This document shows positions 3,376 through 32,921 of a DNA stretch of 64,000 bases, piece by piece. This DNA comes from Oligoflexia bacterium (GTDB lineage Bacteria > Bdellovibrionota_G > JANQFH01): positions 128,742 through 192,741 of the forward strand of contig JANQFH010000008.1 of assembly GCA_028277945.1 (NCBI GenBank), written 5' to 3'. Within the stretch, counting starts at the first letter, position 1, and every line of letters starts with the position of its first letter. The notes beneath the pieces were generated by a model, which was not told the origin of the DNA, searched no databases, and saw only the letters and a program-made list of their open reading frames with translations. The translations under genes were made by a program, and so were the position numbers.

Positions 3376-6300
3376 TTGCTAAAAAATGGGGCCGCTCTCG
3401 ACCCACTGCGACACCCAAGCCCCTTTAGCCGCTGGTTGACACAACGCGTCTTTGATGATAGGTCCGCTATTGCCCCATTTTTTTCGGAGTGGTCTATAAA
3501 TATAATGATATTAAATAGTTACATTAGAAGATGGTACCGCGTGCTGCTTTGCATAGGACTTCTAGCGGTCGCTCCACCCACCCAGCAAACCCAAGCCCAA
3601 ACCACGGACTCATCCACCTCCTCGCCGATAGAGAGACCGAAGCCCAATAACGACGAGGCGATGGCTGCTTTAGACGAGGTCATTGCCCTCTATGTCAGCT
3701 CGCTACGTGCCCGTGAGCTCGGCTCTCTTTACATGGTCTGGAGCCGGAGACAAGGAGTGGCGGATGCCACGGGAAACCCAGAGGCCAAGGGACTTGCTGC
3801 GCTAGCAGGCATGATGCATGGTCGGGCTCAGATCTTTGCGCAAGTGATTGCCATGCTTTGGGTTGCACCGCAAGAGCCACTGAATCGAGACTTCATTAAT
3901 GCAAGGCTTGAGTATTGGCTGAAGCTCTCTGGAATGCCTGTTGAGGAGGAATTCGACCCTATTGTCCATTTGCTTCAGATGGTCTTGAGCTCGACATTCG
4001 GCGAGCTAGCCATTGAGTTTAACACTTACCAAAAGTTGGTGGAGTCGTTAAATGGCATGGTACAGCAGGCATTGTCTCAGACGATTCACCTGCAAATTTT
4101 AGAGGAGGAGAGAAAACTTAAAGCGGATGCCAAGCTCATTGTTGCAGCGGAAGAAAGGGTTAACAAGGCAGCGGTAGAGTTGGAGAAAGCCGCAAACGCC
4201 GTGGAAAAAGGTCCAACCGCTCAGGCCGAACAAGTGCTCGGTCGCGCCGTGGGTGCTTTAGGAAAAGCTATGAGTGCTATTATGCAGGTCGTGGAATTTA
4301 GGCACACTGCCACAGCCTTGCCAGACGAGATGCATCCTGACTACGCTGACTCAGTGGCGGCTGTAGAGCGCGCTGTGGCTCCTTTGTTGGCAATGCACAC
4401 ACAACTTGAGACAGCTCAAAGTGATGCGCGATCCCTCCACGGCCTTGCTAAAGACCTTAAACAGAGCAAAGAGAATATCCGCGATGATAATGAAGCACAA
4501 ATTAGCCAAGCTGGGCTGAGAGGACACGGAACAGCTGCTCGCACAATGCAAGCAAGCCTTAGCGAAGGCGCTGCTAACCTAAAAGCTTACATTGAGGCGC
4601 TGGGGGAAGAGGGGGGAGCAGATCGCGAACTTCTTAAAGCGCGCTTGCGTGCGAGTAATGATCCAACGGTTCAATTTGCCATCGAGAATATGCGTTCGGT
4701 AGCGGATCATTTGGCAGCAGCTGTTGAGGTCTTTAATCCCGATGCAGACGTTGCTGTTGAAGAAACAGAGGGCGGCGACAGAAAGATTCAGCTGACGGGA
4801 GGAACCGTGTCTCTTGAAGATCTCGACAGGGGGCGTACGCACTTTCTGGAAGTAAATAAACTCTCAGTAGCCATGGAGGCGTTGGCCCAAGAAAGAATCG
4901 AATCTGGTACTGTGGATCCAAGGATACAAGAATTGCGAGCAGCTCTTGAGAGCGAAGGCGACGTACAATCGTTGGAGCAAATAAAAGCCGACTTCGAAGC
5001 CCTTTTTAGTATTGTTCGCGATCTTGCCATTGAATTGGCTGCACGTACTGGTGAGGATTCAGCGGTAGGAGCATTTCGCATGACGGGTGAAACTGTGGAA
5101 ACCGTCTACAGCCATATAGATGCTCCACAATACTCTGCTTATCGCTCTATGGAATTTCCCCTGTTTCGGCTCCACCTGACCATGGGGCCTATGAACTCGG
5201 TGCGAAGAGCTCTGGAGATTAGAAGAGAGCTGAGGCGCCTGGAGGCTTTTCTCGCAGATGAAGAAGCAACACTCCAACCTCTCTTTGCAGCCATCGAAAA
5301 AGCGCGCCAGAATATGGAAAGCGTGATGTCTCAGAGTCCGCGCGGTGATGTCCTAGCCACTCCAGTCTCGTGGTTTTCACCAGAAAGGTGCATTCAACAG
5401 ATGGGAGATACCCATGGTCTCTTTGTTGCCGGGCTCGTCGCTGGGGTTATGGATCCTACCAGTAGTACTGCGTCACGTGGCGAATGGTTGCCGACGCAGA
5501 TGCAAGGTTTTCTCTACTCAATAGGGAACTTTCTTCTTGAGGTGGCTGAGCAAATTCCCGAAGCTGAGAATATCTTTTTCAGTGCGGCCTCGGAACAACT
5601 TGCAGGCGACAGCCAAACATCACTTGCGCAGCTCTTTTGGAGGCACCTCCTCTTCCTTGTAAGACAGAGAGGAGAAAATGAAACAGCTGTACTGGCACGC
5701 ATTGCGCATTATGGCGGCGAGCCTGAACCTCTTGCGACTGACGAGCTTGCTGCCACCTATCATGCTGACTTGACTATCGCGCCCTACTATATGGAGCTAG
5801 TGGGGTATCCAGCCGATGACCCAGTCCAAATGGCCGCGCTCCCTCTCGAGGCTTATGAAAGTGCGCTAGAGTTGTGGGGGTTACTACTACCTATCCCGGA
5901 AACAGAGGCGTCACAAGCCTTTTTCCAGTTGCGCGATCCGCTAAGAGCTTGGGTCGAGGAGCAGTTCGCTATGGAGAGAGGCCGTGCCGAAGCAAGGGAG
6001 AGTTCAGAAACACCCTCCGCAACTCCTAGGGTGAACAGAGAAAGCCTTAGAGAGGCGGTGTTAAATTTGGTCACCTACCATGAAGTCTTACGCCAACGGA
6101 ACAATGAGGGATCTTTAGAAGACAAAACTGTACTAGAAGATCTGACGAATTTACTCGCTCTCTTCCTTTCAACAGCTCAAGGGCGCCCGTTAGCAATAAT
6201 GCACAGTGAAGTTCTACAGTCAGAGATCGCCGATGAGACAGATGCCAGGCTTGCACAAGCAGAAGCAGGGCGCCGCGTCATGGCAACCTTCGAACGTACA

Positions 6301-6477
6301 GGTTTAGCTACTCTCCTCAAAAACGGTGAGTTTAAGGCTTTGAAAGGTGCCACCAACGTCACCGACGCTATGGTTGCCGAATCCTTGCAAGTCCTTTGTG
6401 CCGCAACAGGGCGTAGTCGATCTCATCTAGCTTCTCTTACCAGTCGGGCCAGCGTTGTTCCCATTCGTCCACGCTAG
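3376..6477 (+). CDS. Large exported alpha-helical/coiled-coil protein (1033 aa by track; likely true start ATG 3505 giving signal peptide MILNSYIRRWYRVLLCIGLLAVAPPTQQ). C-terminal ~135 aa domain shared with the giant protein 14031-23738
   Basis: Long ORF. N-terminal hydrophobic signal-like segment. A/E/L/R-rich helical composition. C-terminus VTYHEVLRQR..LEDKTVLEDLTNLLALFLSTAQGRPL..AEAGRRV..IRPR aligns with the C-terminus of the 3235-aa protein. Confidence 0.7.
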   Translation: MLKNGAALDPLRHPSPFSRWLTQRVFDDRSAIAPFFSEWSINIMILNSYIRRWYRVLLCIGLLAVAPPTQQTQAQTTDSSTSSPIERPKPNNDEAMAALDEVIALYVSSLRARELGSLYMVWSRRQGVADATGNPEAKGLAALAGMMHGRAQIFAQVIAMLWVAPQEPLNRDFINARLEYWLKLSGMPVEEEFDPIVHLLQMVLSSTFGELAIEFNTYQKLVESLNGMVQQALSQTIHLQILEEERKLKADAKLIVAAEERVNKAAVELEKAANAVEKGPTAQAEQVLGRAVGALGKAMSAIMQVVEFRHTATALPDEMHPDYADSVAAVERAVAPLLAMHTQLETAQSDARSLHGLAKDLKQSKENIRDDNEAQISQAGLRGHGTAARTMQASLSEGAANLKAYIEALGEEGGADRELLKARLRASNDPTVQFAIENMRSVADHLAAAVEVFNPDADVAVEETEGGDRKIQLTGGTVSLEDLDRGRTHFLEVNKLSVAMEALAQERIESGTVDPRIQELRAALESEGDVQSLEQIKADFEALFSIVRDLAIELAARTGEDSAVGAFRMTGETVETVYSHIDAPQYSAYRSMEFPLFRLHLTMGPMNSVRRALEIRRELRRLEAFLADEEATLQPLFAAIEKARQNMESVMSQSPRGDVLATPVSWFSPERCIQQMGDTHGLFVAGLVAGVMDPTSSTASRGEWLPTQMQGFLYSIGNFLLEVAEQIPEAENIFFSAASEQLAGDSQTSLAQLFWRHLLFLVRQRGENETAVLARIAHYGGEPEPLATDELAATYHADLTIAPYYMELVGYPADDPVQMAALPLEAYESALELWGLLLPIPETEASQAFFQLRDPLRAWVEEQFAMERGRAEARESSETPSATPRVNRESLREAVLNLVTYHEVLRQRNNEGSLEDKTVLEDLTNLLALFLSTAQGRPLAIMHSEVLQSEIADETDARLAQAEAGRRVMATFERTGLATLLKNGEFKALKGATNVTDAMVAESLQVLCAATGRSRSHLASLTSRASVVPIRPR

Positions 6478-11471: not shown

Positions 11472-11567
11472 GTGAATCCCCCCTTTACGCTGCCTATAAA
11501 GCAAAGCTGGTGCCAAAAGCAATTTTAGTAATATTAGATAGTTAGAACTTTAGAGGCGAAGCCCTCT

Positions 11568-11614: not shown

Positions 11615-11734
11615 TGAGAGAGAACTTTTGTTTTCACATGAAAATTCAACTCTCTGTTTATACGTGGGTTTTTACCTAGGCAGATGGCCCAGGATTTGCA
11701 TTCCAAGCGTGAGGAAGGGAGTTAACCCGGCTAC

Positions 11735-14002
11735 ATGAAGAAGCTTTTTACCAGCAGCAAAAATGGGTGGGCCGGCAAGCTCGTTACCCTGGTCTTATCT
11801 GTGGTCCTACTGTTTGTGCTGGCAAGCTGTAACACCTCCATCCATGGAACTGATAGCAGTGCCGACAGCACCGACGAAAATGCTGCCGGCTCCCTTAGTG
11901 ACGAGCTCGGTGACGACAGCGGTGGCGACAGCGGTGGCGGTGTTGATCTCATTAACGCCATACTGAACCCAGCAGACTACAATGCCTTAGAATTGATTGA
12001 GTATGATGCCTACGTTTATCCAGGCGAGCACGGCAAGATCGTTGCCGCAGCTACGGGCATCGACCTTGAGGGTTTGTCCTTGACTGTCTTCTTTGTGGAT
12101 GCCGCAGCCATTGACCCGACAAATCCGCTCGAGATGTTTCCGCAGGCTTATGCCAAAGATGATCTAGTTGAAAATCCCGGTAGTGAGCTTGGGGCTCCCC
12201 CAGGAGCGGGGTCCTACAATTTCATGGCGCCGCTCACCACGCCAGTTCCAACCAAATTTATTGTCTTTGCTGGGCTGAAAGTTGACAACAAGGCCTACGT
12301 CACTCAACAGCCCTTTGAAATCAACGTGATTGCGGCGTCCTCTAACCCCACCATAAAACCCAAGGCTGGTTTTGATGGTATCAACGGTTTTGATGGACCC
12401 ACGCCGCCACCCCCGCCGTTTGGTTCGGGTCCAGGTGCAAATGCCAAGGCGATTGCACGGTTTTTCTCGGTAAACAAGCGTACCCTGTATGAAGAGATCG
12501 CCATTGGCGTGATTGCTTACCACATCAACGGTATCGATCGTGTTGAGTTTGCCGTTGAGGGCGGTAAGTGGGAGACGGTAACACAACCCTCGACCAACCC
12601 AGACACTGGGATTAAAAACGAATACTGGGTCAAAGTGAATCCGGACGATTTTCCAGATGGACCTCCTGATGGTGTGTCGCTTGCAACCAAAGAGGGCTAT
12701 GAGATTCGTGCCATTGCTTATCCAAAGAACGCCGGTGAGCCGCGTCTGCTCTCACTCTACTTTAGTACCAATGCAAAAGGGACGCTACCCGAGACCAAGG
12801 TTTGGGTCGATGTGAATGGTGACGACAGCTCTGGCGATGGCACGGCTAGCAAACCAGTGAGAACCATTGCCCGTGCAGCGCAGCTAGCGCAAGAGACACA
12901 AGGCAGCGTTGATGGGGCAACTGCTTATCTCAATCCAGGAACCTACGACTTTGGTCCACCCAAAAGTGGCGTCGCTCCCATTAATAAACGTCGCTGGTTT
13001 ACCATTAGCGCCGCCCCAGGGGTTGACCGCTCACAAGCGATCTTGCAGCAGGGCAGCGATGATACCGGTCTCAAAATCAGGTTGGTGAAGCTAGAAAATC
13101 TAACCTTAACCTCGCCGCTAAAAACAAAAAAACAGGCCTCACCCGCACCGCTCAAAGAGTCCTCTATTTATTTAGAAGGCGTGCGTGCGAAGGGTCCAGA
13201 CCAACAAAAAGAGGCTTCGTTTTGGTTTGGTTCAGACTGGACCGGTCGTTTCGCTGTCAACACAGAGACGAGCGATGCCAAGTACTGCATCGGCGCCACT
13301 GGCGCCACCCTGATTGCTTTTTGCTACTGTCATGAAATTGGCAGCGATGTTTTTAACAACGTCGGGACCTTAGTCAACAACCTAGTCATCAATATCCAAA
13401 AACTCGTTGGAGCTGTACCACCCTGGCATCCCGATTCGATTCAGTATGGTATCAACTCATTTGGGGATGCCAATGCGATTGCACAGGGGAACACAGTTTT
13501 AAATGGCGATGATGCGCAGGGACCCTTTGTTAAGCTCAGCGATTCGAAGAATCCGCTTGAAAATATTGTGTATGCTAACAACGTCTTTGAAACAGGTGTC
13601 TCCGGCAAGGTTGAGCCGGCGAAATTGAACCACATACTGTTTATCAACAATAGCATTGATAAGAGCTCCCTCATTTGGCGTAATCCAAAGGAGGACTCGG
13701 AAAACGTCATGTACCATGGTAATATTTCAAATTTCAAGGTGTATCCTGCCACGGTTAGCGTTGATGAAGCGTGGTTTAAATGGAACCACTTTTTAGGCTC
13801 TGAAACCTACGGTGATTACTTTACCACGGGTGATCCGGGCTACATCGATCCTGCCAACGATAACTACGGCCTTCTGCCCACCTCACCCAACAAAGACGTG
13901 AACATCAGCCCGCTCTTTCCGATTCTCGTACCCATGGATGGCCTTGGCGTTGATCGTGCCACCACCTCAGGCCCCACTTCCAGCAAGGGTGCCCGCGAGT
14001 AA
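11735..14002 (+). CDS. Lipoprotein with probable right-handed parallel beta-helix (pectate-lyase fold) domain
   Basis: Lipobox VLLFVLASCNTS. Motif VNGDDSSGDGTASKPVRTIARAAQLAQETQGSVDGATAYLNPGTYDF resembles the N-terminal cap/first turns of beta-helix proteins. Repetitive N/G/V-rich C-terminal part. Confidence 0.5.
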   Translation: MKKLFTSSKNGWAGKLVTLVLSVVLLFVLASCNTSIHGTDSSADSTDENAAGSLSDELGDDSGGDSGGGVDLINAILNPADYNALELIEYDAYVYPGEHGKIVAAATGIDLEGLSLTVFFVDAAAIDPTNPLEMFPQAYAKDDLVENPGSELGAPPGAGSYNFMAPLTTPVPTKFIVFAGLKVDNKAYVTQQPFEINVIAASSNPTIKPKAGFDGINGFDGPTPPPPPFGSGPGANAKAIARFFSVNKRTLYEEIAIGVIAYHINGIDRVEFAVEGGKWETVTQPSTNPDTGIKNEYWVKVNPDDFPDGPPDGVSLATKEGYEIRAIAYPKNAGEPRLLSLYFSTNAKGTLPETKVWVDVNGDDSSGDGTASKPVRTIARAAQLAQETQGSVDGATAYLNPGTYDFGPPKSGVAPINKRRWFTISAAPGVDRSQAILQQGSDDTGLKIRLVKLENLTLTSPLKTKKQASPAPLKESSIYLEGVRAKGPDQQKEASFWFGSDWTGRFAVNTETSDAKYCIGATGATLIAFCYCHEIGSDVFNNVGTLVNNLVINIQKLVGAVPPWHPDSIQYGINSFGDANAIAQGNTVLNGDDAQGPFVKLSDSKNPLENIVYANNVFETGVSGKVEPAKLNHILFINNSIDKSSLIWRNPKEDSENVMYHGNISNFKVYPATVSVDEAWFKWNHFLGSETYGDYFTTGDPGYIDPANDNYGLLPTSPNKDVNISPLFPILVPMDGLGVDRATTSGPTSSKGARE

Positions 14003-14030: not shown

Positions 14031-17000
14031 TTAGCGGACCCGAATAGAAACAGCTTGAGCGCGTTGCACGATGGAAGTTAAAGCACTTGGATTGAACGTG
14101 GTTAATTTACCAACGACTTGCATGGCTGGACCGATCTGATTATCGCGAATCCCTGCTGCAGGGAGGTGAGCAGTAAATTGACCACTGCTGAGAAGCTGCT
14201 GCAGTCGGGTTTGGGAGTAGTCTCGTGCTATCTGCCGTCCCGCCTCTGCGCGGCCAAGCCTCCCTTCTAGCGGTTCTGGTTCCTCGTCTAGGGGATGAGC
14301 GTACTGCATTACCAAAGGACGTCCTTGATCTGTTGAAAAGAAGAGAGCAAGTAAACGGGTGAGATCTCTCAACAGAGCTGCATCTTCTAGAGTTCCATCT
14401 GCCTTGCGTTGCCATAAGACTTTATGGTAGGTGACCAAAATTGCCGTTGCCTCTTCAACAGCTTGTTGATTGGCGCGTATTTGTTGGATCCTTGCCTGTA
14501 GTTGCTGCGCATGCCTGAGAGCAGACGTTCTCGGGTTCAAGCGGGGATTTCGATCGCTTCGAAAGTGATCAACAATCTGCCTTGCCAGCTGCTCGAGCCA
14601 CAGTAGTTCCGGCAACTCGATAGTGTCGACCGGTTGCAATGACTCGCCTCCTCTTTGTTGGCTTTGATAAAATTCTCCTAGTTGATCTAGTACGAACCCA
14701 TGGACGTCTCTGCTGTCTTGGCCGTGGTTCCACAACTGCAAGAATTCAGCAACAGTGTCGGCGTCAAATAGGTCCACATGGTTGGCTACCAGGTAATAGG
14801 TAAAGAGGCTGCTAACCTGCACTTCTGAAATAGCGTGTTTAAGGCCGTGTTGGAACAGAGAAAAGCTACCTCCTGTCGACGGGTCGTCAAAATGTATCAT
14901 GGCATAGAGATCGCTAAGCGCCCCAGCACGGCTGCGGGCATCCGGTGCCTCCAGCGCAACGAGAAAGATGGCATCGAGGATTTCCGCCACCGTTGACCAT
15001 TCCGAATAGGAACGCAACTTCATGGCAATGGCACTGTAAGCATTACCGGGGTTTATCGTCGTGTTTGGCGTTGCGGCTCGTTGGGCGCTGTGTCGTTCAT
15101 AGACGCCGCTGAGAACACGCATACCAATCTCACGCTGCTGCTCTAAGGGGGAGTGGCGGGCGAGCAGTCGTGCGGCACTGATTGCCGCTAGCGGCGGTTC
15201 GTCGGCACCTTGGGACAAATCAGTCCAATGGAGAAGAGCCGCAGTGAGCTGTGACCATGCACTGTCGCTATCATCCGTACCGAGCGAAAAAATCAGCGTC
15301 TCCAGAGCTAAAGCTGTTAGACGAGAATCGCCTGATTGCCGGACGAAGTTGGCAAGTGGGTTACGCCCGTGTTGTGCCAGCTCCCGGAGGTGCCTGCTCG
15401 CGCTGTCTCGATATTCAACATCTGGATCACCCCAGGCATGCTTTAAGTATGTCTGCAAATAATCCGACTGAGCCTCTCCAGCATCGGGAGGGTTCACAAA
15501 AATCTTATCAGGAAGGGAGACGAACACATCACAACGTCTTCGTGACGCGTCCCAGGCAGCGCTCCGTTGTGTGGGAGTCACATGTTTGCTATAGGGAGGT
15601 ACCGTGGTAATTCCATATCGCAGCCATCCTATATCTCTTTTGGTTGGCGGTGCTCGCAGTCCAGTGGTATGACTACCTAAAGGTAATTGGAGTTGGCTAC
15701 CCAGTCGTGTCCTTGCCTCAGCATTGACGCTCTCTAGCACTTGCACCGCCTCCTGCTGGTTTGCCTCACCTGGTGGACGGCCGGCAAAGAAGGTAGTGAT
15801 GTGATAGGCAGCCAATTTGGCGGTGTCACTCAGCGAAGCAAACAGGCGTGCTGCTAAACCTTCCGTGACAAACAGCGGTGTTGCCTGCGTGCGCAGTAGC
15901 TCCAGGTAGCTCGGCTGTTCGGTTGGCGAGCTTTGGCAGCGTTGGACAATCTGCTGCAATGCGAGCAACCAATGGGTGATTTCCGGCCTAAGACTACTGT
16001 AACGAACGTCATCAGCGGCAATGGATGCGAGCAGATCTACGTGTAAATTTTCTCTGTCTATTCTATCTAGCTCGGCAGTTGCCGATTGTCTGGCTTCAGT
16101 ATCACCCGGCGCAAGTGCCAAACCTTGTAGTACTAACCAGATGCGCATAGCACTGCCATAGTCTCCACGATCATAGCTTGCTTGCATGGCTTCATAGCCG
16201 ACGCGCTCTGTAGCTAAGAGAGAGGCCAGTCCATTAGTAACGCGTGCGCGTATGTTGCTAAGATAAATTTGAAAGAGAGAATCCATGGTGTCATCAGCAA
16301 AGGTTCCTCTGGCTGCGATCCACTCTCCGGGTTCAAAACCCAGCTCTTTGAGCCACTCCCTAGAGAAGGCGAGGTTCCAGAGCAGTTGTAACGCGTTGGG
16401 GGAATCCGCGGATTGCCGTTCTATAATGGTAATAAGGCTCTCCGTGACGGTCGCATAGGCCATCTGCACGGATTCGCAGCCATTCAGTTCCCAAAAGAAC
16501 AGGGCGCGGGTTATTTCGAGCCGTTCTATGGCCCAGTCATACGCCGGATCGGCCACACGTTGAGCTAGAGTCAAGGCAAGCTGTCTATAGGATGCAACCT
16601 GCGGGTGGTTGCTTAATTTAAGCAGCGCTTGCATGGCATCGTCGGTACGTAACGACCGTAACGCCCCTTGGCGATGTGCGCTATTGGTGTCGTGGGTTGC
16701 TGTCTCCAAAGTCTGCCAAAGCCAATCATCGGGAGTCTTGGCATTACGCTCACTTTCCTGTTGACGGTTACCACCACCACCCCACGGTAGAATAGTGTGG
16801 CCACCGCGGCTAGGATGGCGCGGCGGATCCAAGTTGGCACGCAGCCCAGGATCATGCCCGGTTGGCCGCATACCGACACGCTCCATGGCGGCTTGAATGT
16901 CTGTTTCAAAGGCTACCAACCCTCTGATGTTTTCTGTGAACGGCGGCGGGCCATCTGGCAGTTGCACGCATCTATTAGCAGTGTCCAGCAGTTGTCGGGC

Positions 17001-20000
17001 GAGCCGACGTATTAACGGGCTAGCTGAGTTGGCGTGGCGATCCAGAGAACCACTGTTGGCAAGCGCTTGCACCATCAAACTAGCGGGACTGACTATGGCT
17101 TGCGGCTCAAGGCGTTCGTCACGCAAGCTGCGATCCAACGCTAAGAGAGCGAGGGCACGATCCCAAACCGACACATCTTCGCCACGCAGATGATGAGCTG
17201 CTTGACGGCTTTCCACCATCTCTTCTGCTTGGGCCTGAGACACCACGCTACCCACGTTCACGGCGCGCTCGCAGAGATAGTGCAGCTGTTGCGCAGCACG
17301 CATACGAACATCCTCAGGCAGGTCAGGATCGACAATGGCTAGGTTGAGAAGCATCATCCAACGCAACCAGTCTTCATGGGCGTGCGGCTCCTGCCGCTCT
17401 CGAGTTTCTAGATCGGTTAATATCCTATCGTCTAGAATCAGCAGCACCACATTGACGCCCAATGTAGCGTAAGCCAGACGCTGCAACCCATCTTGATTTC
17501 CAGGTCTTGCTGCCATGTGTTCAGAAGGTGTTAACTTATGATTCACTAGGGGGAGCTCCGTGGTCTCTTCCCGCGGGGCTAATGGTGATGTTGATCTAGC
17601 CTGTTCATCCCCGCTCATAGCCTGAAGCAGGCGTTGAGCCTCCATGAGCATTGGGGACAGATTAACCTCGCCTCCCCCATCTGCCAGTGCAGCATGGCCA
17701 CTTCTACGCAGGATCCTTACTAACAGCGACTGTAATTCTTCAATGCAAAAAACAACTGATTCTAAATACTCTTTAGGTTCTATGCCTTGAGCGTCTTTAC
17801 GGACTACGCGCATGGTTGGGGTCATAGATTCGAGTTGCATCCAAGCACGTAGGAAGACCATGCTGTTGTTGGCGCGTACAAATAGCGCTTCACGTGTAGG
17901 GTCCTGCAAACGACCAGCGGTTGTAAAAAGAATATCAATGAGTTCTAGGTCAGACATCAATTTCATGGCGATTTCTCTTAGTGATATTGAATGTTGGTTG
18001 GGTGGTTCTCCAGTAGTTAAAGCTTCCGCGAGTACAGCAAGCATACGACTGCCCTCTGGAAACGAGAGTGCCATTAGCTCCGCGTGGAGAGCAGGATCTG
18101 AGGTTCCTGCTCTGGCATCTGTTTGGGGTGGTTCCAGTTCATCCAATACATCAGCAAGAAATGCACGAAAACCCTCACCGTCGCGCCAGGTAGCAAGGGC
18201 CTCCTCTAAACGGCTGGCTGCTTCAGCATGCTGTCCAGACCCAGCAATTGCCGCCCGGAAATTTGCCACTGCCTCAAGCAACCTCACGGTTGTTTCCCGA
18301 TCGTATGGAGAGGTGAGCATGCCCGCAAACCGTTCTCCACGGAAAAATCCGGCATAGATCGGTAATAACTCTGCGTGCAGTTCAACATCGTAAAACCAGG
18401 CGAGGTTGAGGATATCTAGGGCAAGTTGCACGTAATCTCCTGGTGCCTCTGCCTTGACCAAAGAGCCGATCCGGGCAAAACTGCCGGTTCGCGAGAGACG
18501 TGCCAAAGTTGCCTCACGCACAGAGAGTCCACTGCCTCGCACTAGGGCATCATCACCATTCGATAGGGCTGCGTGAATAAGCGTCAGCACGGCTTCTGCT
18601 AATTTAGGATTTTCCTCTAGCAGCGTAGTTTCTATCGCTAGCAAAGGACCAGGGGAGAGCAAATCAACCAACTCCTCGGCCACAACCTGCCCTCCATGGA
18701 TCCAAGTGGTTAAGAGCTCAACCATTGCAGTTGCAATTTCTAAATCCTCTGCCGACGGTTGTTGTGTTGCTGTAGGTGCAGCCAAGCATCTCTGTAAAAA
18801 TTGGCGCATAGGCCAGAGTGCTGCGTTTGCGCCTTCAGCGTAACGCCAGGTCCTATCTTCGGAAAAATAGAATGCACGCATCGCCTCCAAGCGCTGCGCT
18901 GTTGGGAGGCTTTCATCTAACATTGTTGCAAACCAGAGAGCAGTCTGCTGTTGCGGATGTGCCGTACCGGGATCTGGATTAAGACGGTGTTTGGTCAGGT
19001 AGCGAATCTCTGTTGGCGGGAAATAGTTGTCGAGAAAAGTTTGACAGTTAGTTCTCACCGCGCCATCGTAGATCTCTACACCGTCCAGAGCCAACCTGAG
19101 AGCGAGCAGGCGTAATAATCGATTCTTGTCAGGCGTATTCCAGGTTGTAAACCGGCCGCCGCTACGGATCGACTCCGAAAAAATGCCATGCGCTTGTTCG
19201 GTAGCTACATGTGAAACATCTGGGTTCAAGAGCGCGTAGCGTAGTACTAAGAGAAATCCAACGAGCTCTCTGGTCTCGCCTGCCGGCGCTTTTGCACTAC
19301 CGCTGTAGCTTTCGGTAAGGCGGTAACTTGTAGTCAGCACTCTTTCTACTACCAATCCGAACTCTTGACGATCAAGTGCTCCTGAGTCTGGTTTAAGAAA
19401 AACGCTCTCCAATGGAATGTTGCGTTCAAAAGCTTCAAAGATAGTCTGCAAGCCTACACGGTAAGAGAAGCTGCCAGACTCGCTCATCGCTAAGCTTATG
19501 AGCAGCTCATAAAAAAGCTCTGGGTTCTCCTGCCAAGCGTCTTCGCCACGGCCAAGGAGCTGTTGTGCTTCTACGACCAAATTGTGCAAGCTTGGCTTTT
19601 GGGACTCCGCACCATTACGAATCTGGTTTTGGCTTACGGCAGCGGCTTCCCGCTGAAACCAAATCATGTCGGTTATGTCATGACCGGTATCACCGCGCGC
19701 TTCAGCAACGGCTAAAAACATGGTGCGGGCGCGTTGCTGTTGCCGCGCATCCACACCCACAACGTTGCCCCTGTAGATGGCGATTAAGCAATGTCTCGCG
19801 GCATCGGCTAGCTCTCCATCAGAGCTTTGGGCGAGGTGTTCTAAGAGTGAGGGGCCGCTCGGTTCAGCATCGGTATAAGGCGCTAACAGCCTCGAGGCTA
19901 GTCCGTGGATACTTGTTACTGACACATCTGTACTGGGCCCATCCGTTTCAGACGTAGCCCTCTCTACCGCAGGTGAGTAGGACCAGAGAATCGCCTCAAG

Positions 20001-23000
20001 GACGAGGCGCAGCAGTTGCGGATCGTCGTAGCGTCGCAACACTTCGGTCCATAACGCCGGCTCCGCTTTCTGGTAGGTGTCAGCAAGATGGCGTACTAAG
20101 TTGCTTTCACTGCTGTTGTGGTGGTGTGCTAGCAGTTGCAAACAGCGACGCAGCGCCGTCTCATGCCGGTCTCGATAGGCCTCTTCAAAGAGAGCGAAGA
20201 GATCGGTGACAATGGTCTCAGCTGCTATAGGGGGCTCAGCATCCTGACCACCGACAGCCAAGACCTCAACAACGGTTAGAACTGCCAAGCGGTAGCGCCA
20301 CAACAGTGCGTGGGGTTGTTGTAATGCCTCTCTAAAGGTGACTTGTCGTTGAAAGGGTAGGGCGGCCACGAGATCCGTCCAGCGATCATAATTGTCAGGC
20401 TGTGTGCGCAAGCTCTGCCAAAGATCGTGTAGCTGCGTAGGTGATGGGTGCAGCCCTTGTAACCTCCTATCAACGTTTGCTACATCATCATCTGGACTAT
20501 CCGCATGAAAGGCCTCAGCTCGAGCGTTCAGCTCTTGCAGATTGCGGTAACGCTCTCTAAGCGAGCGGCTCTCATCCAGCACCCCTTCCCAGAGAGTTGC
20601 TGCATCAACACTCGCCCTTGCTCTTCCGCTCCCCCAAAAGTCTAACGCTCCTCTGCGTTGCTGGTTTGCGCCTACCGGGGTCAAACCCCGACGCTGACGT
20701 GGATCGGCTGGCGCTGGCTGCAAACCAAAGTCGTCCATCTGCTGGGCGACCGTAGCGTGCAGCTCAGCATGCGGATTTGCAGACCAGCCATTCGGCGGTG
20801 CAGACCAACGATGCACAGCGTGTAAAAGAATGGTGATGAGCTCACGAATGAGTGGATTTTCCGCATTAGAGTGGCGATTTAAGGTGCCTCTTCCTATGAG
20901 CTCAAAGACTAGTCTGGCTTGAGCTGTCAGCCGCGGATCACCTGGTGGCGAGTTACGAAAGCCCTCCACCAATCCCAACAGTGCCAAAGCTTGGTCCCAA
21001 GTGGACTCAGCCTCACCAATCTCAGTTAGAACACGCCGCATTGCGTGTGGGTCTCGAGCCTCAGGACCGTTCATCTGCGTGAGGTTCACCTGGCCGTTTC
21101 TGACCATGTCACAGGCGTGTTGCAGCAGAGCTGCGGCGGTTTCTCGTATAGGCGTCTCGGCTTCGCCCATCCCATTGAGAGTTACTGCTGCTGTTAGCCA
21201 ATCACCCGCAAGTATCGGAGTTCCATGGAGATGTGCCTCTAGCAGTCGCCTTATTGATGGCTGCTGCTCAAGCTGCAGCTGGAGAGTCTGAACCGTCCAG
21301 TTAAAAACATGTTCAGCACGGAAGTCGCTACCATCCGTTGCTGCGACAAACTCATCTACTCTTGCCAAAAAGTCCGTGGCAGACCATTGCGCCACCAGGG
21401 CACTGCGTACTGAGCGGGTACTATCGCCACTTGGCGTTTCCATAACAAGGCTAGCATCATGGTAGCGTCCTATAGTGTGAATAAGATCGAGCGCTGCATC
21501 GGCAGCCTCGAGATGACCACCCTGCACCGCGTGCGAGAATAGTCGCAAAATAGGTCCGGGGCTGACGATCTCAGTAACATGCTCTGGTGCATAAAATCCA
21601 TGTGCCGCCCAGCTACGTAACAAGTGTAATTGTTCTGTAGCCAGCGGCCAATGCATGGCCGCACGAGAGCCGCCACTCTCCAGCGCATCACAGCTGTCGG
21701 CAAGTTGGGCAATGAAGAGATCTCCGTAGTGCTGTACCAGATTGATGTAAGCAACAGCAATTTCCAGCTGTCTAAAATTGTAAGCTCCCTGAAGGGACCT
21801 CAATCTTCTTAGTGCTTCACGACGCTCGGCTACGGGAAGGATAGTATCAAGGGCCTGGCGTAACAGCTGTTCGGTCTCTGCAACCATCGGTCCCACACCG
21901 TCAACGTAGCTAAGATCCACTGGAGGTGTGTAGCCACGCAGCAACGGTGCTCCTACTCTTTGCAACGGTTCAGAGCCACCTCCACTAGCATCACTCGCTG
22001 CCACAGCTTGTTCTAAGCCATGGTGGGTGAGCATACGTACTAGGGGATGGTTATGTTGCAAGAGTGTTGCGATTCTGCCTTCACTTAAGGCAGAGTCATA
22101 GGACCGCTGCATCTCATTAGCACTGTTTGGATCAAGAACGTCGTCAACCAAACCACAACGATAAAACAAAAGTGCCGTAGCAAGATCTTGTACACTCTCT
22201 CCTTCAAGCAAAGCGCTCCGAAATCGACCATCCGTCACATAAGCGTTGGCATTAAACTTTCCCTCCACCGTAGCCGCCACCACCTCAAGACGACCAAGCT
22301 CGTCTGTGTTGAGCAACCGCTGTACCACGTCCAAAGCGAGCTCAAAGTCCGGTGCTGCGGAATCGGTAGCTGCAAGCTCCATAAGCAGCTTGCCATACTG
22401 GTCCAGTGCATACGGATCTTGTCCTCCGTGCATGGCATGAATCTCCGTAGCGTTCTGGCGCAGCGGGCTCGCCTCACTCCATAGGCTAAGCTCTGTTGCT
22501 GGCTCCGACTGTGGAGGAGCTCCCTCCACTGCGTAGATGGCTGCTTGCGCCCGGGCGCGCATGTTGAGGTCTCCATGTCTTAGAAGATTTTCTAGAAACC
22601 CACGAAAAGGCGTATCGGGGTTAGAACTATAGCGTGCTGCATAGGCAGTTTGTAACCAACCGCTCCTCAGCAGAAAGTCTTGACGCTGGTCTGCTAGGTT
22701 AGCGATCTCCGGCGGCCCATGCCGTGTGCCTAATGCGCCTAAGCCGTACAGGGTCTGCAGCGCCATATCGGCCAACGGGGTGTCACGGGAGTGCTGCGCT
22801 ATTGCCACCAATTCCCCTTGTGGATATTTGCTAGTTGGCTCCAGGAGTGTTGCAGCAATATCGATAAAAGGCTGACGAACTTCAGCGGGATCTCTACTAT
22901 CAGAAGAATCTCTCCTAAATACCACCCGCGTCAGCGTGTCATCCCACATCGCCTCCTGGTACCAACACCAACGGAACAACCCCAGAAGCTCCTCGCGCAC

Positions 23001-23738
23001 TAAAGCCTCTCTGTTTGTTCGCCACATCCGCTCCCAGCTGCCGGATTCAACGAGTTCTTGGTAAATGAACAAGAGAGGATAGTGGGAGCGGGAGTTTTGT
23101 GGAGCGCGCCTCTGCCCCAGCACGCCTAATAGCGTGCGTACGGCGCCTTGGTGGCGCTGCCCTGCCGCAACTTGCAGCACTTCCCCGAGACGCCGCAGGG
23201 CATCTGCTTCACCAAATACATTGGGCGATAATTCCTCACGGGCTAATCTTTCTAAACTATTTACCACTGCCAACATCAGACGCCACTGCGCGGCCGGTCT
23301 TCGCGTAACAAACGGCGACGTGCCAAAGAAATCAGCGATGGTAATTCGACCTCGAAGCAATGCGTGCAGATCTTGTTCGAATGTTTGCAGACTGGTGTCC
23401 TCGACGCGCAAAGGAGTGATCAGGTCCGCCAGCCAATTAGCTCTGCTGCCTATATGGAAACGTGTTCTTGCTGCTTCTAGATTGGTGGTCCCCACCCGTT
23501 CTCGGTGGAAGTCGGTGATCAGCGAGTCAACAAAGCCCTCTAAGGCTATGGCGCGCTCATCCGGTGGCAGGTTTGCATCAATCACCTGCTGCCAGAGGCG
23601 TTCACGTTCAGCTTGTGCAGTCTGCGCACCTGACTGCGCTTGCGCGGCAGGGCTGAATAGGAGTCCGGCAAGCAAGGCTAGCAGTGGCAACAAGCGTCGT
23701 CTGCCGGGCCAATCTCGATTACGTTGGTAAGCTGTCAT
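14031..23738 (-). CDS. Giant 3235-aa exported alpha-helical repeat (HEAT/ARM-like) protein with internal large-scale duplications and a conserved C-terminal domain shared with 3376-6477
   Basis: Single 9.7-kb ORF. N-terminal signal peptide LLPLLALLAGLLFSPAAQAQ. Internal repeats, e.g. STWDQALALLGLVEGFRNSPPGDPRLTAQARLVFELIGRGTLNRHSNAENPLIRELITILLHAV versus VSVWDRALALLALDRSLRDERLEPQAIVSPASLMVQALANSGSLDRHANSASPLIRRLARQLL. C-terminus ..VTYHKVLWQR..LEDAALLRDLTRLLALFFSTDQGRPL..AEAGRQI..IRVR. Confidence 0.75.
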   Translation of the reverse strand: MTAYQRNRDWPGRRRLLPLLALLAGLLFSPAAQAQSGAQTAQAERERLWQQVIDANLPPDERAIALEGFVDSLITDFHRERVGTTNLEAARTRFHIGSRANWLADLITPLRVEDTSLQTFEQDLHALLRGRITIADFFGTSPFVTRRPAAQWRLMLAVVNSLERLAREELSPNVFGEADALRRLGEVLQVAAGQRHQGAVRTLLGVLGQRRAPQNSRSHYPLLFIYQELVESGSWERMWRTNREALVREELLGLFRWCWYQEAMWDDTLTRVVFRRDSSDSRDPAEVRQPFIDIAATLLEPTSKYPQGELVAIAQHSRDTPLADMALQTLYGLGALGTRHGPPEIANLADQRQDFLLRSGWLQTAYAARYSSNPDTPFRGFLENLLRHGDLNMRARAQAAIYAVEGAPPQSEPATELSLWSEASPLRQNATEIHAMHGGQDPYALDQYGKLLMELAATDSAAPDFELALDVVQRLLNTDELGRLEVVAATVEGKFNANAYVTDGRFRSALLEGESVQDLATALLFYRCGLVDDVLDPNSANEMQRSYDSALSEGRIATLLQHNHPLVRMLTHHGLEQAVAASDASGGGSEPLQRVGAPLLRGYTPPVDLSYVDGVGPMVAETEQLLRQALDTILPVAERREALRRLRSLQGAYNFRQLEIAVAYINLVQHYGDLFIAQLADSCDALESGGSRAAMHWPLATEQLHLLRSWAAHGFYAPEHVTEIVSPGPILRLFSHAVQGGHLEAADAALDLIHTIGRYHDASLVMETPSGDSTRSVRSALVAQWSATDFLARVDEFVAATDGSDFRAEHVFNWTVQTLQLQLEQQPSIRRLLEAHLHGTPILAGDWLTAAVTLNGMGEAETPIRETAAALLQHACDMVRNGQVNLTQMNGPEARDPHAMRRVLTEIGEAESTWDQALALLGLVEGFRNSPPGDPRLTAQARLVFELIGRGTLNRHSNAENPLIRELITILLHAVHRWSAPPNGWSANPHAELHATVAQQMDDFGLQPAPADPRQRRGLTPVGANQQRRGALDFWGSGRARASVDAATLWEGVLDESRSLRERYRNLQELNARAEAFHADSPDDDVANVDRRLQGLHPSPTQLHDLWQSLRTQPDNYDRWTDLVAALPFQRQVTFREALQQPHALLWRYRLAVLTVVEVLAVGGQDAEPPIAAETIVTDLFALFEEAYRDRHETALRRCLQLLAHHHNSSESNLVRHLADTYQKAEPALWTEVLRRYDDPQLLRLVLEAILWSYSPAVERATSETDGPSTDVSVTSIHGLASRLLAPYTDAEPSGPSLLEHLAQSSDGELADAARHCLIAIYRGNVVGVDARQQQRARTMFLAVAEARGDTGHDITDMIWFQREAAAVSQNQIRNGAESQKPSLHNLVVEAQQLLGRGEDAWQENPELFYELLISLAMSESGSFSYRVGLQTIFEAFERNIPLESVFLKPDSGALDRQEFGLVVERVLTTSYRLTESYSGSAKAPAGETRELVGFLLVLRYALLNPDVSHVATEQAHGIFSESIRSGGRFTTWNTPDKNRLLRLLALRLALDGVEIYDGAVRTNCQTFLDNYFPPTEIRYLTKHRLNPDPGTAHPQQQTALWFATMLDESLPTAQRLEAMRAFYFSEDRTWRYAEGANAALWPMRQFLQRCLAAPTATQQPSAEDLEIATAMVELLTTWIHGGQVVAEELVDLLSPGPLLAIETTLLEENPKLAEAVLTLIHAALSNGDDALVRGSGLSVREATLARLSRTGSFARIGSLVKAEAPGDYVQLALDILNLAWFYDVELHAELLPIYAGFFRGERFAGMLTSPYDRETTVRLLEAVANFRAAIAGSGQHAEAASRLEEALATWRDGEGFRAFLADVLDELEPPQTDARAGTSDPALHAELMALSFPEGSRMLAVLAEALTTGEPPNQHSISLREIAMKLMSDLELIDILFTTAGRLQDPTREALFVRANNSMVFLRAWMQLESMTPTMRVVRKDAQGIEPKEYLESVVFCIEELQSLLVRILRRSGHAALADGGGEVNLSPMLMEAQRLLQAMSGDEQARSTSPLAPREETTELPLVNHKLTPSEHMAARPGNQDGLQRLAYATLGVNVVLLILDDRILTDLETRERQEPHAHEDWLRWMMLLNLAIVDPDLPEDVRMRAAQQLHYLCERAVNVGSVVSQAQAEEMVESRQAAHHLRGEDVSVWDRALALLALDRSLRDERLEPQAIVSPASLMVQALANSGSLDRHANSASPLIRRLARQLLDTANRCVQLPDGPPPFTENIRGLVAFETDIQAAMERVGMRPTGHDPGLRANLDPPRHPSRGGHTILPWGGGGNRQQESERNAKTPDDWLWQTLETATHDTNSAHRQGALRSLRTDDAMQALLKLSNHPQVASYRQLALTLAQRVADPAYDWAIERLEITRALFFWELNGCESVQMAYATVTESLITIIERQSADSPNALQLLWNLAFSREWLKELGFEPGEWIAARGTFADDTMDSLFQIYLSNIRARVTNGLASLLATERVGYEAMQASYDRGDYGSAMRIWLVLQGLALAPGDTEARQSATAELDRIDRENLHVDLLASIAADDVRYSSLRPEITHWLLALQQIVQRCQSSPTEQPSYLELLRTQATPLFVTEGLAARLFASLSDTAKLAAYHITTFFAGRPPGEANQQEAVQVLESVNAEARTRLGSQLQLPLGSHTTGLRAPPTKRDIGWLRYGITTVPPYSKHVTPTQRSAAWDASRRRCDVFVSLPDKIFVNPPDAGEAQSDYLQTYLKHAWGDPDVEYRDSASRHLRELAQHGRNPLANFVRQSGDSRLTALALETLIFSLGTDDSDSAWSQLTAALLHWTDLSQGADEPPLAAISAARLLARHSPLEQQREIGMRVLSGVYERHSAQRAATPNTTINPGNAYSAIAMKLRSYSEWSTVAEILDAIFLVALEAPDARSRAGALSDLYAMIHFDDPSTGGSFSLFQHGLKHAISEVQVSSLFTYYLVANHVDLFDADTVAEFLQLWNHGQDSRDVHGFVLDQLGEFYQSQQRGGESLQPVDTIELPELLWLEQLARQIVDHFRSDRNPRLNPRTSALRHAQQLQARIQQIRANQQAVEEATAILVTYHKVLWQRKADGTLEDAALLRDLTRLLALFFSTDQGRPLVMQYAHPLDEEPEPLEGRLGRAEAGRQIARDYSQTRLQQLLSSGQFTAHLPAAGIRDNQIGPAMQVVGKLTTFNPSALTSIVQRAQAVSIRVR

Positions 23739-23918
23739 AATCTAAGCTGTTTTCTCTAATGCACCAACCGGTGAGATTGCAACCGCCATACCAACCTTAC
23801 GTTTATAACAGGTTGATAATAGTGGATTTTTCCATTCTTGTTGGACTCAATTGTGGGCAAAGTGAGACATTCTGTCCCCTGACTGGGTCTACGGCTTCTC
23901 AGAGGCAATGGTGTATTA

Positions 23919-25133
23919 TTAGTGCTGCGGCCATTCGTTTATGAGAAGCGTTTGCTCTAAACCCACCTTGTTGGCTAATTCAGCATCAAGATCGAGGATA
24001 TCGACGACAGTTAGGTCAAGCCAATGTTTCTCTCTTGGAGAGATTTTGTAGAGAATTTCCAGCAGCAGCGGCAGTTCATAGGCAAAGGCGTTGCGGTATT
24101 CTCGAAAGCCATTGGTATAACAAAAGCGTACCACTCGATCTGTTTTGTCCGCATCGGTGGCATCTTCTTTCGGTTTCTCTAGTTTGGAAAACCCCTCTTG
24201 TGCGAGTTTGATGTGACACGCCCTGCCTCTTTCTATGTACCACTCTATTTTCCTCTTGATCACATTTACGACTCGTTCACGTAGCGTAACTGGAAGTGCG
24301 TGCGCCCGTGCCACTACCCAGCTCAACTGGGTAACCGAGGGCAGCTCAGCAGAGTAGAACTCTATGGTGTGGTGGCGAATGGTTTGGGTAAGCTCTAACT
24401 CTGCCTGTAGGTAAGCCTCTTGCTCTTCGTCTATAAGTGCTAGTGTGACCATTGTCGTAGATCGGCTGCCATTTGCAAAGTTACTATTATCGAAGCTTGC
24501 AGCGCTGAGCTCGAGAGGTGCCGCGTACACCAGATGTTTATGACCTTCTTCATTCTCGAAACGTGGGTTGACAATAGAAGGGCCTCCTTGCAACTCACCG
24601 TTAGGCAGAACATCGGTAAGGGGTGGAACGGCTATCTTTTTGTCTCCATCTTTTTTTTCGTAATCGCTGACAATGAAAACCGCAGAGAGGGGCCTCTTCG
24701 CGCCATAGACAAAGAGCTCCGTAAGGTCGACGATTTTAACCGGTACAGTTTTCCAAGACTCAAAGAGCATATCCCATCGTTGTCGGCGATAGGCATAGAA
24801 ATCTTTTTTCAATAGCGGCTGTGGTTTGCTTAAATCTTTGATAGAGCAAGGTTCCAGGCAATCATGGGGTCCCAAAAAGGCGATGTCCACCTTCATAGGT
24901 TTTTTACCATCTCCAAGTAGGAGAGCTGGATGGTCAAATACGGCCAACTCTCGTAGCGCTGCGGTGTACTCAGGAACGGCTAATGTGAGAGTGCCATTCT
25001 CCTCATCACTCTTAATCGTGTAGGTTTGGAGTTGTGCGGTGGCAGTTGCAGAGCCTGTCCATGCCACCAGGAGTATTGCAAAAATGATCCATCTTCTCGG
25101 CCAGTTAGGCTGTGTGGCTCTGTGGTGTGGCAT
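23919..25133 (-). CDS. Hypothetical exported protein (404 aa)
   Basis: ORF with N-terminal signal peptide WIIFAILLVAWTGSATATAQ; no recognisable catalytic motif. Confidence 0.5.
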   Translation of the reverse strand: MPHHRATQPNWPRRWIIFAILLVAWTGSATATAQLQTYTIKSDEENGTLTLAVPEYTAALRELAVFDHPALLLGDGKKPMKVDIAFLGPHDCLEPCSIKDLSKPQPLLKKDFYAYRRQRWDMLFESWKTVPVKIVDLTELFVYGAKRPLSAVFIVSDYEKKDGDKKIAVPPLTDVLPNGELQGGPSIVNPRFENEEGHKHLVYAAPLELSAASFDNSNFANGSRSTTMVTLALIDEEQEAYLQAELELTQTIRHHTIEFYSAELPSVTQLSWVVARAHALPVTLRERVVNVIKRKIEWYIERGRACHIKLAQEGFSKLEKPKEDATDADKTDRVVRFCYTNGFREYRNAFAYELPLLLEILYKISPREKHWLDLTVVDILDLDAELANKVGLEQTLLINEWPQH

Positions 25134-25462
25134 GGCTGGTCGGTGCCATATAAGCGCAAATAATGCACAACGTCAATCATTATTCAATCTAAGCCAATTT
25201 GAACACGGCACTGCCTCTTCAGATCCGTCTGCAACAAAGCAGCTGATCTCGGCTCTAGAGTCTGACTACATCATTGATGCTGAGGTTGTTGCCGATGCTA
25301 TTCAGCGTGGAAAGACCTTCCAGGCTTTAGATAAAAGCACGTTGATAAAGATTAATTTCTACTAAAAAGCTTGATGTTGGCTATCTTGAGAAAACCGCCG
25401 ATTTATTAGGGGTTGCAGGTCTGTTTCAGGAGTTCTCTCGGCAAGTCAAGAGCTAGACACTC

Positions 25463-26203
25463 TTAGCGGACAATGGTATCCATTCCCAAATAACGGCCAT
25501 CTTTATTGCTATACCATCGACGCACCTTTGGTAGGCGGATTTTTCCAACGAGTGCCTCTTCATGTAGGATTACGTACTCTCCATCCTTATCTACTTCGTC
25601 TTTATAGTAACGGTAGCCTATAAGTGCATGATCTGTCGGATCAAAATAGAAGTACCAGGTGTGATCACCTACCTCTTTATCATAGGTAACTCGTAGTTCT
25701 AGTGCCTCTCGGTTATTGAAGTCGGTCTTAACCAGCTTCTCGGCAAACCGTGCCCCTTCATCCAAGAGCTTCATAGGCATGCCGTAGAGGTAGAGATAGT
25801 AGTTGCGTAGCCAAAGGGCGCGGTCTCTTTTGAGGTAGTACTGCTTAGCTTCTGCCGCGGTGAATGTTACCGAACCATCCAGAAGGGTTTTAACGTTTTG
25901 TCCATCAATGTGGATCTCTATTTTGCGTCCGTCGCGCTCGGTGGTAAGTTCAAAAGTACCACGGCGATTATTAATGATGATAGAGGTAAACCGAGCGGCT
26001 TTCTGGGGACGCGACTCTTCAAGCTTGAAACTAAAGACACCTTGCTTCCAGACTGCTTGCGGATCATGATGGTCGATGGTTTTTGTTACTAACTTTTGCG
26101 GCGACAGAGGTTGAGTAACGCGCCAGCAGGACATACCGATAATAACTGCGGCTGGCATCATGATCGCGGCCACTATTTTGCTTATCTGACGTTGTAAATC
26201 CAT
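25463..26203 (-). CDS. Hypothetical exported/membrane-anchored protein (246 aa)
   Basis: ORF with N-terminal hydrophobic segment IVAAIMMPAAVIIGMSCW. Confidence 0.5.
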   Translation of the reverse strand: MDLQRQISKIVAAIMMPAAVIIGMSCWRVTQPLSPQKLVTKTIDHHDPQAVWKQGVFSFKLEESRPQKAARFTSIIINNRRGTFELTTERDGRKIEIHIDGQNVKTLLDGSVTFTAAEAKQYYLKRDRALWLRNYYLYLYGMPMKLLDEGARFAEKLVKTDFNNREALELRVTYDKEVGDHTWYFYFDPTDHALIGYRYYKDEVDKDGEYVILHEEALVGKIRLPKVRRWYSNKDGRYLGMDTIVR

Positions 26204-28177: not shown

Positions 28178-28189
28178 GCGCGACGCTTT

Positions 28190-32915: not shown

Positions 32916-32921
32916 TAAATT

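Follow-up and report, generated by a model that had tools for sequence, protein, structure and literature searches.

A 64,000-nucleotide stretch of the genome of an Oligoflexia bacterium (contig JANQFH010000008.1, positions 128,742 to 192,741; here called the window, with positions counted from its first letter) contains a single open reading frame (ORF) that encodes a protein of 3235 amino acids (aa) with a signal peptide. This protein, which we call the giant, represents a new, genome-restricted family of a known general kind, the large exported helical-repeat proteins. Three features of the family are unusual: the duplication of a megamodule, a conserved C-terminal domain (CTD) that is private to the family, and lysine starvation. 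Our preferred, tentative explanation takes the giant for a non-enzymatic scaffold or adhesin with an alpha-solenoid fold, exported by Sec, which would act outside the cytoplasm and dock to a shared partner by its CTD.

Integrity and architecture of the giant

The giant ORF (14031..23738, minus strand) runs from an ATG start through 3235 codons to a stop codon. Its reading frame has 0 internal stops, whereas the two alternative frames of this strand have 159 and 198. Codon-position GC is constant along the gene in blocks of 333 codons, with the first position (GC1, 0.60-0.71) above the third (GC3, about 0.5) and the third above the second (GC2, about 0.45); GC3 of the whole gene is 0.50, compared with about 0.62 in the housekeeping genes of the window. 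The protein is known from two assemblies, the NCBI contig (514,312 bp) and a Logan contig of run SRR20820740. Between positions 4031 and 33738 of the window, a length of 29,708 bases, the Logan contig shows 0 mismatches, although both assemblies may share the same reads. An earlier note, made on this DNA without database searches, had described one uninterrupted ORF of 3235 aa, and the stop counts, the uniform codon-position GC and a paralogue with the same architecture agree with that description; the check for a frameshift or a fusion artefact against the other assembly, with reads possibly shared, was negative.

The N-terminus, MTAYQRNRDWPGRRRLLPLLALLAGLLFSPAAQA followed after the cleavage site by QSG, shows the three regions of a Sec signal peptide: an n-region with five Arg, an h-region with a hydrophobic core of 13 residues, and a c-region with the A-x-A cleavage site in the form A-Q-A before Q. 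Read directly from the sequence, the signal peptide covers aa 1-34 (23637..23738, minus strand), with cleavage predicted between AQA and QS. This segment is the only one in the giant in which the Kyte-Doolittle mean over 19 residues exceeds 1.7. The classical Sec features support the signal peptide that the earlier note had called.

Most of the protein consists of two long, related modules. A BLAST self-comparison of the whole protein gave the identity match only, and a masked sliding-segment comparison was used instead. The best-conserved pair of blocks, aa 846-1021 (20676..21203, minus strand) and aa 2123-2305 (16824..17372, minus strand), is 33% identical (E 4e-12). A second pair, aa 599-806 (21321..21944, minus strand), which includes the motif LDxxLPxAERxxAL, and aa 1568-1769 (18432..19037, minus strand), is collinear with the first and 27% identical (E 2e-9), and weaker collinear pairs are found further upstream in the modules. 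Module A (aa ~35-1040; 20619..23636, minus strand), delimited by self-comparison and alignment, opens after the signal-peptide cleavage site with LWQQVID at aa 49. Module B (aa ~1041-2325; 16764..20618, minus strand) opens with LWEGVLD at aa 1050, and both modules terminate in Gly/Pro/Arg-rich linkers, that of B at aa 2289-2327. Alignment of A (aa 40-1040) with B (aa 1041-2325) scores z = 23.5 above shuffles, and MAFFT gives 28-29% identity over about 880 columns, with insertions of roughly 300 aa in B. Judged by sequence, modules A and B are collinear, diverged tandem copies of one module of about 1000-1300 aa. No DNA-level repeats were found within the gene, and hence the duplication must be old. 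Region C (aa ~2326-3090; 14469..16763, minus strand) showed no relationship to the module by pairwise scoring (z ~0), hmmsearch or hhalign; its sole weak match in the self-comparison pairs aa 1297-1397 with aa 2763-2861 (E 0.03). The large internal duplication reported in the earlier note is thus real, but the 75-aa block described there is only the core of a megamodule duplication of about 1000-1300 aa. Its two units, which are included in the two copies of the best-conserved block, start at aa 914 and 2192 and so lie 1278 residues apart and not about 1000.

Within about 15 billion proteins, relatives of the giant were found for its C-terminus only. The exhaustive phmmer search took aa 2037-3235 as query against 1.84 billion representatives of this set and returned three proteins: the giant itself, P0002 (2425 aa) and P0003. 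The matches of P0002 and P0003 to the giant are confined to the last ~150 residues, and in alignment with these two paralogues the CTD spans aa ~3091-3235 (14034..14468, minus strand). Its identity to the giant's CTD is 59-62% in P0002 and 42% (E 8e-27) in P0003. The last residues of the three CTDs are VSIRVR in the giant and VPIRPR and VPIRFR in the paralogues, giving the invariant pattern V-[SP]-I-R-x-R, and the basic end of the domain has the form R-x6-R-x-R. P0003 is a 990-aa exported protein of the window itself (3505..6477, plus strand; CTD at nucleotides (nt) 6007-6474), corresponding to ORF 3376-6477; gene calls give it 978 or 990 aa. The helical body of P0003 is not related to that of the giant, and pairwise scoring, hmmsearch and hhalign found no relationship to the module profile. 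P0002 is encoded on the giant's own 514-kb contig, so that the CTD family consists of three paralogues of one genome. No further CTD copy was found in the window. Two fragments of 47-53 aa that clustered with P0003 at 90% identity (L086, L087) are pieces of eukaryotic HSP90 genes and were discarded as spurious members.

P0002 repeats the architecture of the giant: behind its signal peptide stand two modules in tandem, aa 31-1130 and aa 1325-2308, which match each other with E down to 8e-21, and then the CTD. Its module 1 and module B of the giant are weakly but significantly related (z 6.9, the highest cross-protein value), and a hidden Markov model of the P0002 modules matches aa 542-754 of the giant (7e-7) and the start of module B. 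The four modules of the two proteins share the restart motif W[EQ]xV[LIV]D, which stands at aa 49 and 1050 in the giant and, in P0002, at aa 39 and 1333. Similarity between modules within a protein (z 23.5 in the giant, z 102 in P0002) exceeds that between the proteins (z at most 6.9), which indicates that the module was duplicated independently in each gene or that the copies underwent concerted evolution. As only the CTD is conserved among the three paralogues, it appears to be under stronger constraint than the bodies.

Other searches found no relatives in the sets that they covered. A word-index search with the full giant against 5.8 billion cluster representatives returned the giant only, and it also missed the paralogue P0002. 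When a four-sequence profile of the module core was used in the same type of search, nothing was returned, the query included, and this negative is uninformative. No relatives of the giant were found in GTDB representative genomes, and none of the CTD profile in JGI metagenome contigs.

The giant, P0002 and P0003 have no significant match in Pfam, NCBIfam, PHROGs, PADLOC or the PDB sequences, and a motif scan of the giant found no HExxH, GxSxG, Walker A, CxxC or RTX motif, consistent with the absence of a recognisable enzyme motif in the earlier note. The HEAT, ARM and TPR profiles of Pfam (PF02985, PF13646, PF00514 and the TPR clan) did not match the giant at gathering score; its sole repeat-profile match is to TPR_19 (E 0.093; 13.5 bits, where the cut-off is 25), and P0002 matches HEAT at E 0.13. 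The HEAT-type signature VRxxAxxxL occurs 4 times in the giant against 1.3 expected, a marginal enrichment. An AlphaFold2 (AF2) model of module A (aa 40-1040, from a four-row alignment) has 54 helices, mostly short (median 13 residues), with 69% helix and no strand, at low confidence (predicted local distance difference test (pLDDT) 56, predicted template-modelling score (pTM) 0.34), and pLDDT falls below 50 at the module's end. Among the 50 best matches listed in a Foldseek search of this model against the PDB, 46 have E <=1e-3, and all of these are alpha-solenoid or helical-repeat scaffolds. These 46 are almost all eukaryotic (SF3B1, CAP-G, importins, CRM1, TBCD, TRRAP), and one is an engineered repeat protein. 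The all-helical character proposed before is therefore reproduced in the model. The HEAT/ARM-like units proposed with it find support as a fold class, from the Foldseek matches of a low-confidence model, and not as membership of a family, because no profile is significant and the signatures are few. The model of the CTD has five helices (pLDDT 66, pTM 0.64) and no meaningful match among PDB folds by Foldseek.

The third unusual feature is the composition. The giant contains 28 Lys (0.9%) and 274 Arg (8.5%), an Arg-to-Lys ratio of about 10:1, and P0002 is alike with 0.8% Lys and 9.0% Arg, even though the bodies of the two proteins are only about 20% identical. Cytoplasmic housekeeping proteins of the window keep about 5-7% Lys at equal or higher GC, so that GC content cannot explain the depletion. 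Other secreted proteins of the window are also somewhat Lys-poor (0.7-3.6%). In toxin A chains that translocate from the endoplasmic reticulum (ER), a bias of Arg over Lys averts ubiquitin-dependent degradation (PMC4030972). For the giant, possible benefits are the avoidance of Lys-specific proteases or of Gln-Lys cross-linking by a nearby transglutaminase-like protein (7385-8443). The earlier note mentioned neither the depletion, nor the CTD shared with the 990-aa protein, nor the promoter element described below.

Putative promoters, neighbouring genes and host lineage

A sigma-54-type -24/-12 element with the sequence TGGTAT-N5-TTGCA precedes the giant's ATG by 40 nt (23778..23793, minus strand). 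It matches the consensus, with -24 GG and -12 GC at exact spacing, as in the promoters of sigma-54-dependent genes. The window has 6 exact matches to this element against 1.02 expected, and 3 of the 6 are correctly oriented about 29-45 nt before the starts of genes for large secreted proteins, namely the giant, a 1003-aa lipoprotein and an ORF of at least 1086 aa at the left edge of the window. Copies with one mismatch stand before the genes of a 755-aa and a 928-aa lipoprotein. Together, five promoter-proximal elements (23778-23793, 11500-11515, 3303-3318 and 63882-63897 on the minus strand and 11685-11700 on the plus strand) stand about 29-70 nt upstream of five starts. An FHA-sigma-54 activator (enhancer-binding protein) is encoded in the same window (45716-47518, minus strand). 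As matches to the consensus, these elements suggest that large envelope proteins may form a sigma-54 regulon, in which the giant would probably be expressed from its sigma-54 promoter jointly with the neighbouring large lipoprotein genes. Upstream of the sigma-54-type elements in two intergenic regions (3319-3360 and 11516-11684) there is also a near-palindromic motif, ATCTAATATTA, which could be a candidate site for a regulator or a DNA-bending protein.

Nearly all genes around the giant encode signal peptides or lipoboxes. Downstream lies the convergent gene of the 755-aa lipoprotein (11735-14002), and upstream, across a gap of 180 nt, that of a 382/404-aa signal-peptide protein. The transglutaminase-like protein (Pfam E 5e-27) has a transglutaminase-like cysteine-protease fold, and a CPBP/Rce1-like protease is encoded at 31995-32915. 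The context described in the earlier note is largely borne out: the transglutaminase-like protein, the CPBP protease, lipoproteins with lipoboxes and HExxH motifs in two ORFs are present. The beta-helix call for the 755-aa lipoprotein, in contrast, has behind it a non-significant match to DUF1565 (E 0.014).

The 1003-aa (8460-11471, minus strand) and 928-aa (61027-63813, minus strand) lipoproteins are paralogues with 29-32% identity and no known domain. Their family has about 30 homologues, for example in Engelhardtia mirabilis and in metagenome-assembled genomes (MAGs) of Planctomycetes. In Planctomycetota these lie in a conserved neighbourhood of genes for HTH-SKI, enoyl-CoA hydratase and a 470-aa hypothetical protein, a set absent from the window. 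Guilt by association through the lipoprotein family failed, as the homologues' neighbourhood is without giants. The region may form a dedicated surface or prey-interaction locus, as had been proposed: the shared CTD and the shared sigma-54-type promoters speak for this, and the Planctomycetota neighbourhoods speak against it.

Several other features of the window were observed. The ORF of at least 1086 aa (3-3260, minus strand) runs off the left edge and is divergent from the gene of the 990-aa paralogue; its product starts with a signal peptide or an N-terminal anchor, contains two hydrophobic segments further in (aa 660-722) and matches no domain. A block of lower GC beside the giant (24000-34000, GC 0.46-0.50) may be a separately acquired module. 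It encodes a DUF6503 protein, a 470-aa HExxH protein, a 669-aa HEAT-repeat protein (HEAT_2, E 4e-15), a 563-aa TPR/HExxH protein, the CPBP/Rce1-like protease and an AAA_14/DUF4143 ATPase. The 3' end of the transfer-messenger RNA (tmRNA) gene (44823-45176, minus strand) is the insertion site of an integrative element of about 9.7 kb (~35.0-44.8 kb, GC 0.43-0.47). Repeats of the tmRNA 3' end lie at 35028-35043, 35129-35149 and 44826-44846, two of them at the far end, and the cargo includes a tyrosine integrase (43419-44579, minus strand), a primase/DUF3987 protein, an SDH-type ClpP-like protease and a Hypoth_Ymh protein. The giant lies outside this element. Two exported proteins without known domains are encoded on the plus strand at 55967-56836 (289 aa, 0.7% Lys) and 56870-60229 (1119 aa, with a signal peptide); the latter adjoins the second lipoprotein paralogue, so that a lipoprotein may here be paired for a second time with a large helical protein.

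The leucyl-tRNA synthetase (LeuRS; 51269-53653, plus strand) is at most 60% identical to anything in GTDB representative genomes or JGI metagenome contigs, and hence the window comes from a very deep, essentially unsampled lineage. The best matches are MAGs of Bdellovibrionales and Pseudobdellovibrionaceae, slightly ahead of Firmicutes, and a taxonomic label drawn from this one sequence is tentative. The orphan status of the giant must partly be an effect of sampling, since its host lineage is almost unsampled.

Scaffold, effector, polyprotein or artefact

The scaffold or adhesin reading is favoured by the signal peptide as the sole hydrophobic segment, by the absence of a catalytic motif or domain match, and by the fold matches of the low-confidence module A model, which among those listed are exclusively to solenoid scaffolds. 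The sigma-54-type elements before the giant and other large secreted-protein genes, and the signal peptides or lipoboxes of nearly all neighbours, also speak for it. In this reading, the giant would be exported by Sec and would work as a soluble protein in the periplasm or on the cell surface, where two copies of the helical megamodule and the unique helical region would offer a very large protein-binding surface. The CTD would be a common docking or targeting module that brings three different bodies to one partner, for which a component of anchoring, assembly or export is a candidate. Length would have increased by duplication of the megamodule, and repeated duplication or concerted evolution of the modules would suit a function that grows with length or valency. 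Several points weigh against this. The window has no outer-membrane secretion system, and the lipoprotein homologues of Planctomycetota lie in a different conserved neighbourhood with no giants nearby. The structure models are of low confidence (pLDDT 56 for module A and 66 for the CTD), and although the Foldseek matches reach E values of about 1e-4, their TM-scores are just 0.15-0.25. The exhaustive search covered aa 2037-3235, whereas aa 1-2036 were covered by the word-index search that missed P0002. Finally, the scaffold idea leaves the Lys depletion unexplained.

That depletion is the starting point of a rival that we consider rather unlikely, in which the giant and its paralogue are effector- or toxin-like proteins delivered into prey or a eukaryotic host, with the CTD as translocation signal and Lys avoided under Lys-directed threats (the ubiquitin-proteasome system, Lys-specific proteases or cross-linking). 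Eukaryote-like solenoid folds are common among effectors, and the low-confidence module A model resembles this fold class. The nearest LeuRS relatives belong to a predatory group, the Bdellovibrionales, but this assignment is weak, with identities of 57-60% that are barely above those of Firmicutes matches. An Arg-over-Lys bias as extreme as that of the giant and P0002, far from the composition of the housekeeping proteins and kept despite the divergence of the bodies, has a counterpart in the A chains of ER-translocating AB toxins (PMC4030972); yet other secreted proteins of the window are Lys-poor too, so that the bias may reflect the extracytoplasmic environment in general. Toxin and enzymatic domains are also absent, as is an immunity-like gene, and an N-terminal Sec signal is atypical for one-step secretion of effectors. 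Alternatively, the giant could be a polyprotein that is exported and then cut at the Gly/Pro/Arg-rich linkers into units of about 1000 residues, of which only the last would carry the CTD. Each module in the giant and P0002 restarts with the motif found directly behind the cleavage site of the signal peptide, the linkers between modules are likely to be disordered (for example aa 2289-2327, and the end of module A with pLDDT below 50), and secreted or membrane proteases are encoded nearby (the transglutaminase-like cysteine-protease fold and the CPBP protease). However, no conserved cleavage motif was identified, and tandem duplication of the mature N-terminus would explain the restart motif equally well, which leaves processing of this kind improbable.

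Very improbable is an artefact or a non-functional gene, that is, a misassembled gene fusion or a decaying, unexpressed ORF. The lack of homologues outside the giant's own genome and the atypical GC3 would fit such an origin, but with so many stops in the other two frames, 3235 codons free of stops can hardly be due to chance. The identical sequence in the second assembly (with reads possibly shared) and the same combination of signal peptide, tandem modules and CTD in P0002 also argue against it, and the conservation of the CTD and of Lys depletion between paralogues points to selection. In addition, the signal peptide and the promoter-like element lie exactly at the predicted start. The probability left after these four named explanations belongs to something else. 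A bolder form of the effector idea, which we think quite unlikely, would make the three CTD proteins a new class of effectors, Lys-starved and modular alpha-solenoids, in a deep-branching bacterium that may be predatory or host-associated. In that case the CTD with its V-[SP]-I-R-x-R end would be a new two-step, Sec-dependent secretion or targeting signal, Lys scarcity would protect the proteins in the target cell, and the nearby secreted transglutaminase-like enzyme would be a candidate source of cross-linking.

If the architecture functions as we read it, the scaffold or adhesin would represent a new bacterial route to very large extracytoplasmic interaction surfaces, in which a megamodule of about 1000 residues was duplicated ahead of a small docking domain, apparently independently in two paralogues. 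The conserved tenfold bias of Arg over Lys in an exported protein of 350 kDa is an unusual and testable clue to the environment in which it works. The absence of an orthologue among about 15 billion proteins (exhaustive for aa 2037-3235) illustrates how much protein space unsampled lineages hide. The practical significance is modest at present.

Comparison with known systems

In pairing a Sec signal with a C-terminal domain common to otherwise unrelated large secreted proteins, the family resembles the cargo of the type IX secretion system (T9SS) and PEP-CTERM and MYXO-CTERM proteins, but it has three members in one genome. Assignment to any of these sorting systems was rejected. There is no match to the T9SS models TIGR04183 or PF18962, and the CTD is predicted as five helices and not as a beta-sandwich; exosortase and rhombosortase tags (PEP-CTERM, MYXO-CTERM, GlyGly-CTERM), in which a basic cluster comes after a C-terminal transmembrane helix, have no match in NCBIfam, and beyond the signal peptide no 19-residue segment exceeds the hydropathy threshold of 1.7. 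An RTX protein of a type I secretion system was likewise rejected, as the giant has no GGxGxD motif and does have an N-terminal signal peptide.

The Bep proteins of Bartonella carry a signal for a type IV secretion system (T4SS) that consists of an all-helical BID domain of about 140 aa and a short basic C-terminal tail. The five-helix, 145-aa CTD of the giant also has a basic end, but a Sec signal is inconsistent with the recruitment of Bep proteins from the cytoplasm. No BID match was found in Pfam, in the PDB sequences or by Foldseek, nor any T4SS genes in the window, and a BID-type substrate was rejected. Polymorphic toxins (Rhs, CdiA, MafB) were also rejected: the combination of variable bodies with a conserved C-terminus is the opposite of their pattern, there is no match to Rhs, YD or FHA repeats, and the downstream gene, where an immunity gene might be sought, is that of the convergent 755-aa lipoprotein. 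A phage or defence assignment was rejected as well, as PHROGs and PADLOC gave no match.

West-Roberts et al. (bioRxiv 10.1101/2023.11.21.568195) describe giants of predatory Omnitrophota that exceed 30,000 aa, have numerous transmembrane regions and contain a SecA DEAD-like domain. The likeness lies in very large, largely unannotatable proteins from a poorly sampled, possibly predatory lineage for which a role in cell-cell interaction is proposed. By these features, the protein described here is of another type, having 3235 aa, one hydrophobic segment and no SecA match.

The strong bias of Arg over Lys is shared with the A chains of AB toxins, in which the Arg-to-Lys counts are 21:2 for ricin A, 15:2 for CtxA1, 22:0 for PtxS1 and 22:2 for StxA1 (PMC4030972). 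In contrast to these small catalytic subunits, the giant has a mass of 350 kDa, no catalytic domain and no known eukaryotic target. The HEAT/ARM scaffolds (importin-beta/CRM1, SF3B1, CAP-G) are, like the giant, all-helical, with many short helices and no catalytic site. The giant differs from them in being bacterial, Sec-exported, three times longer and depleted of Lys, and in being built from diverged megamodules of about 1000-1300 aa instead of a single array of repeats of about 40 aa.

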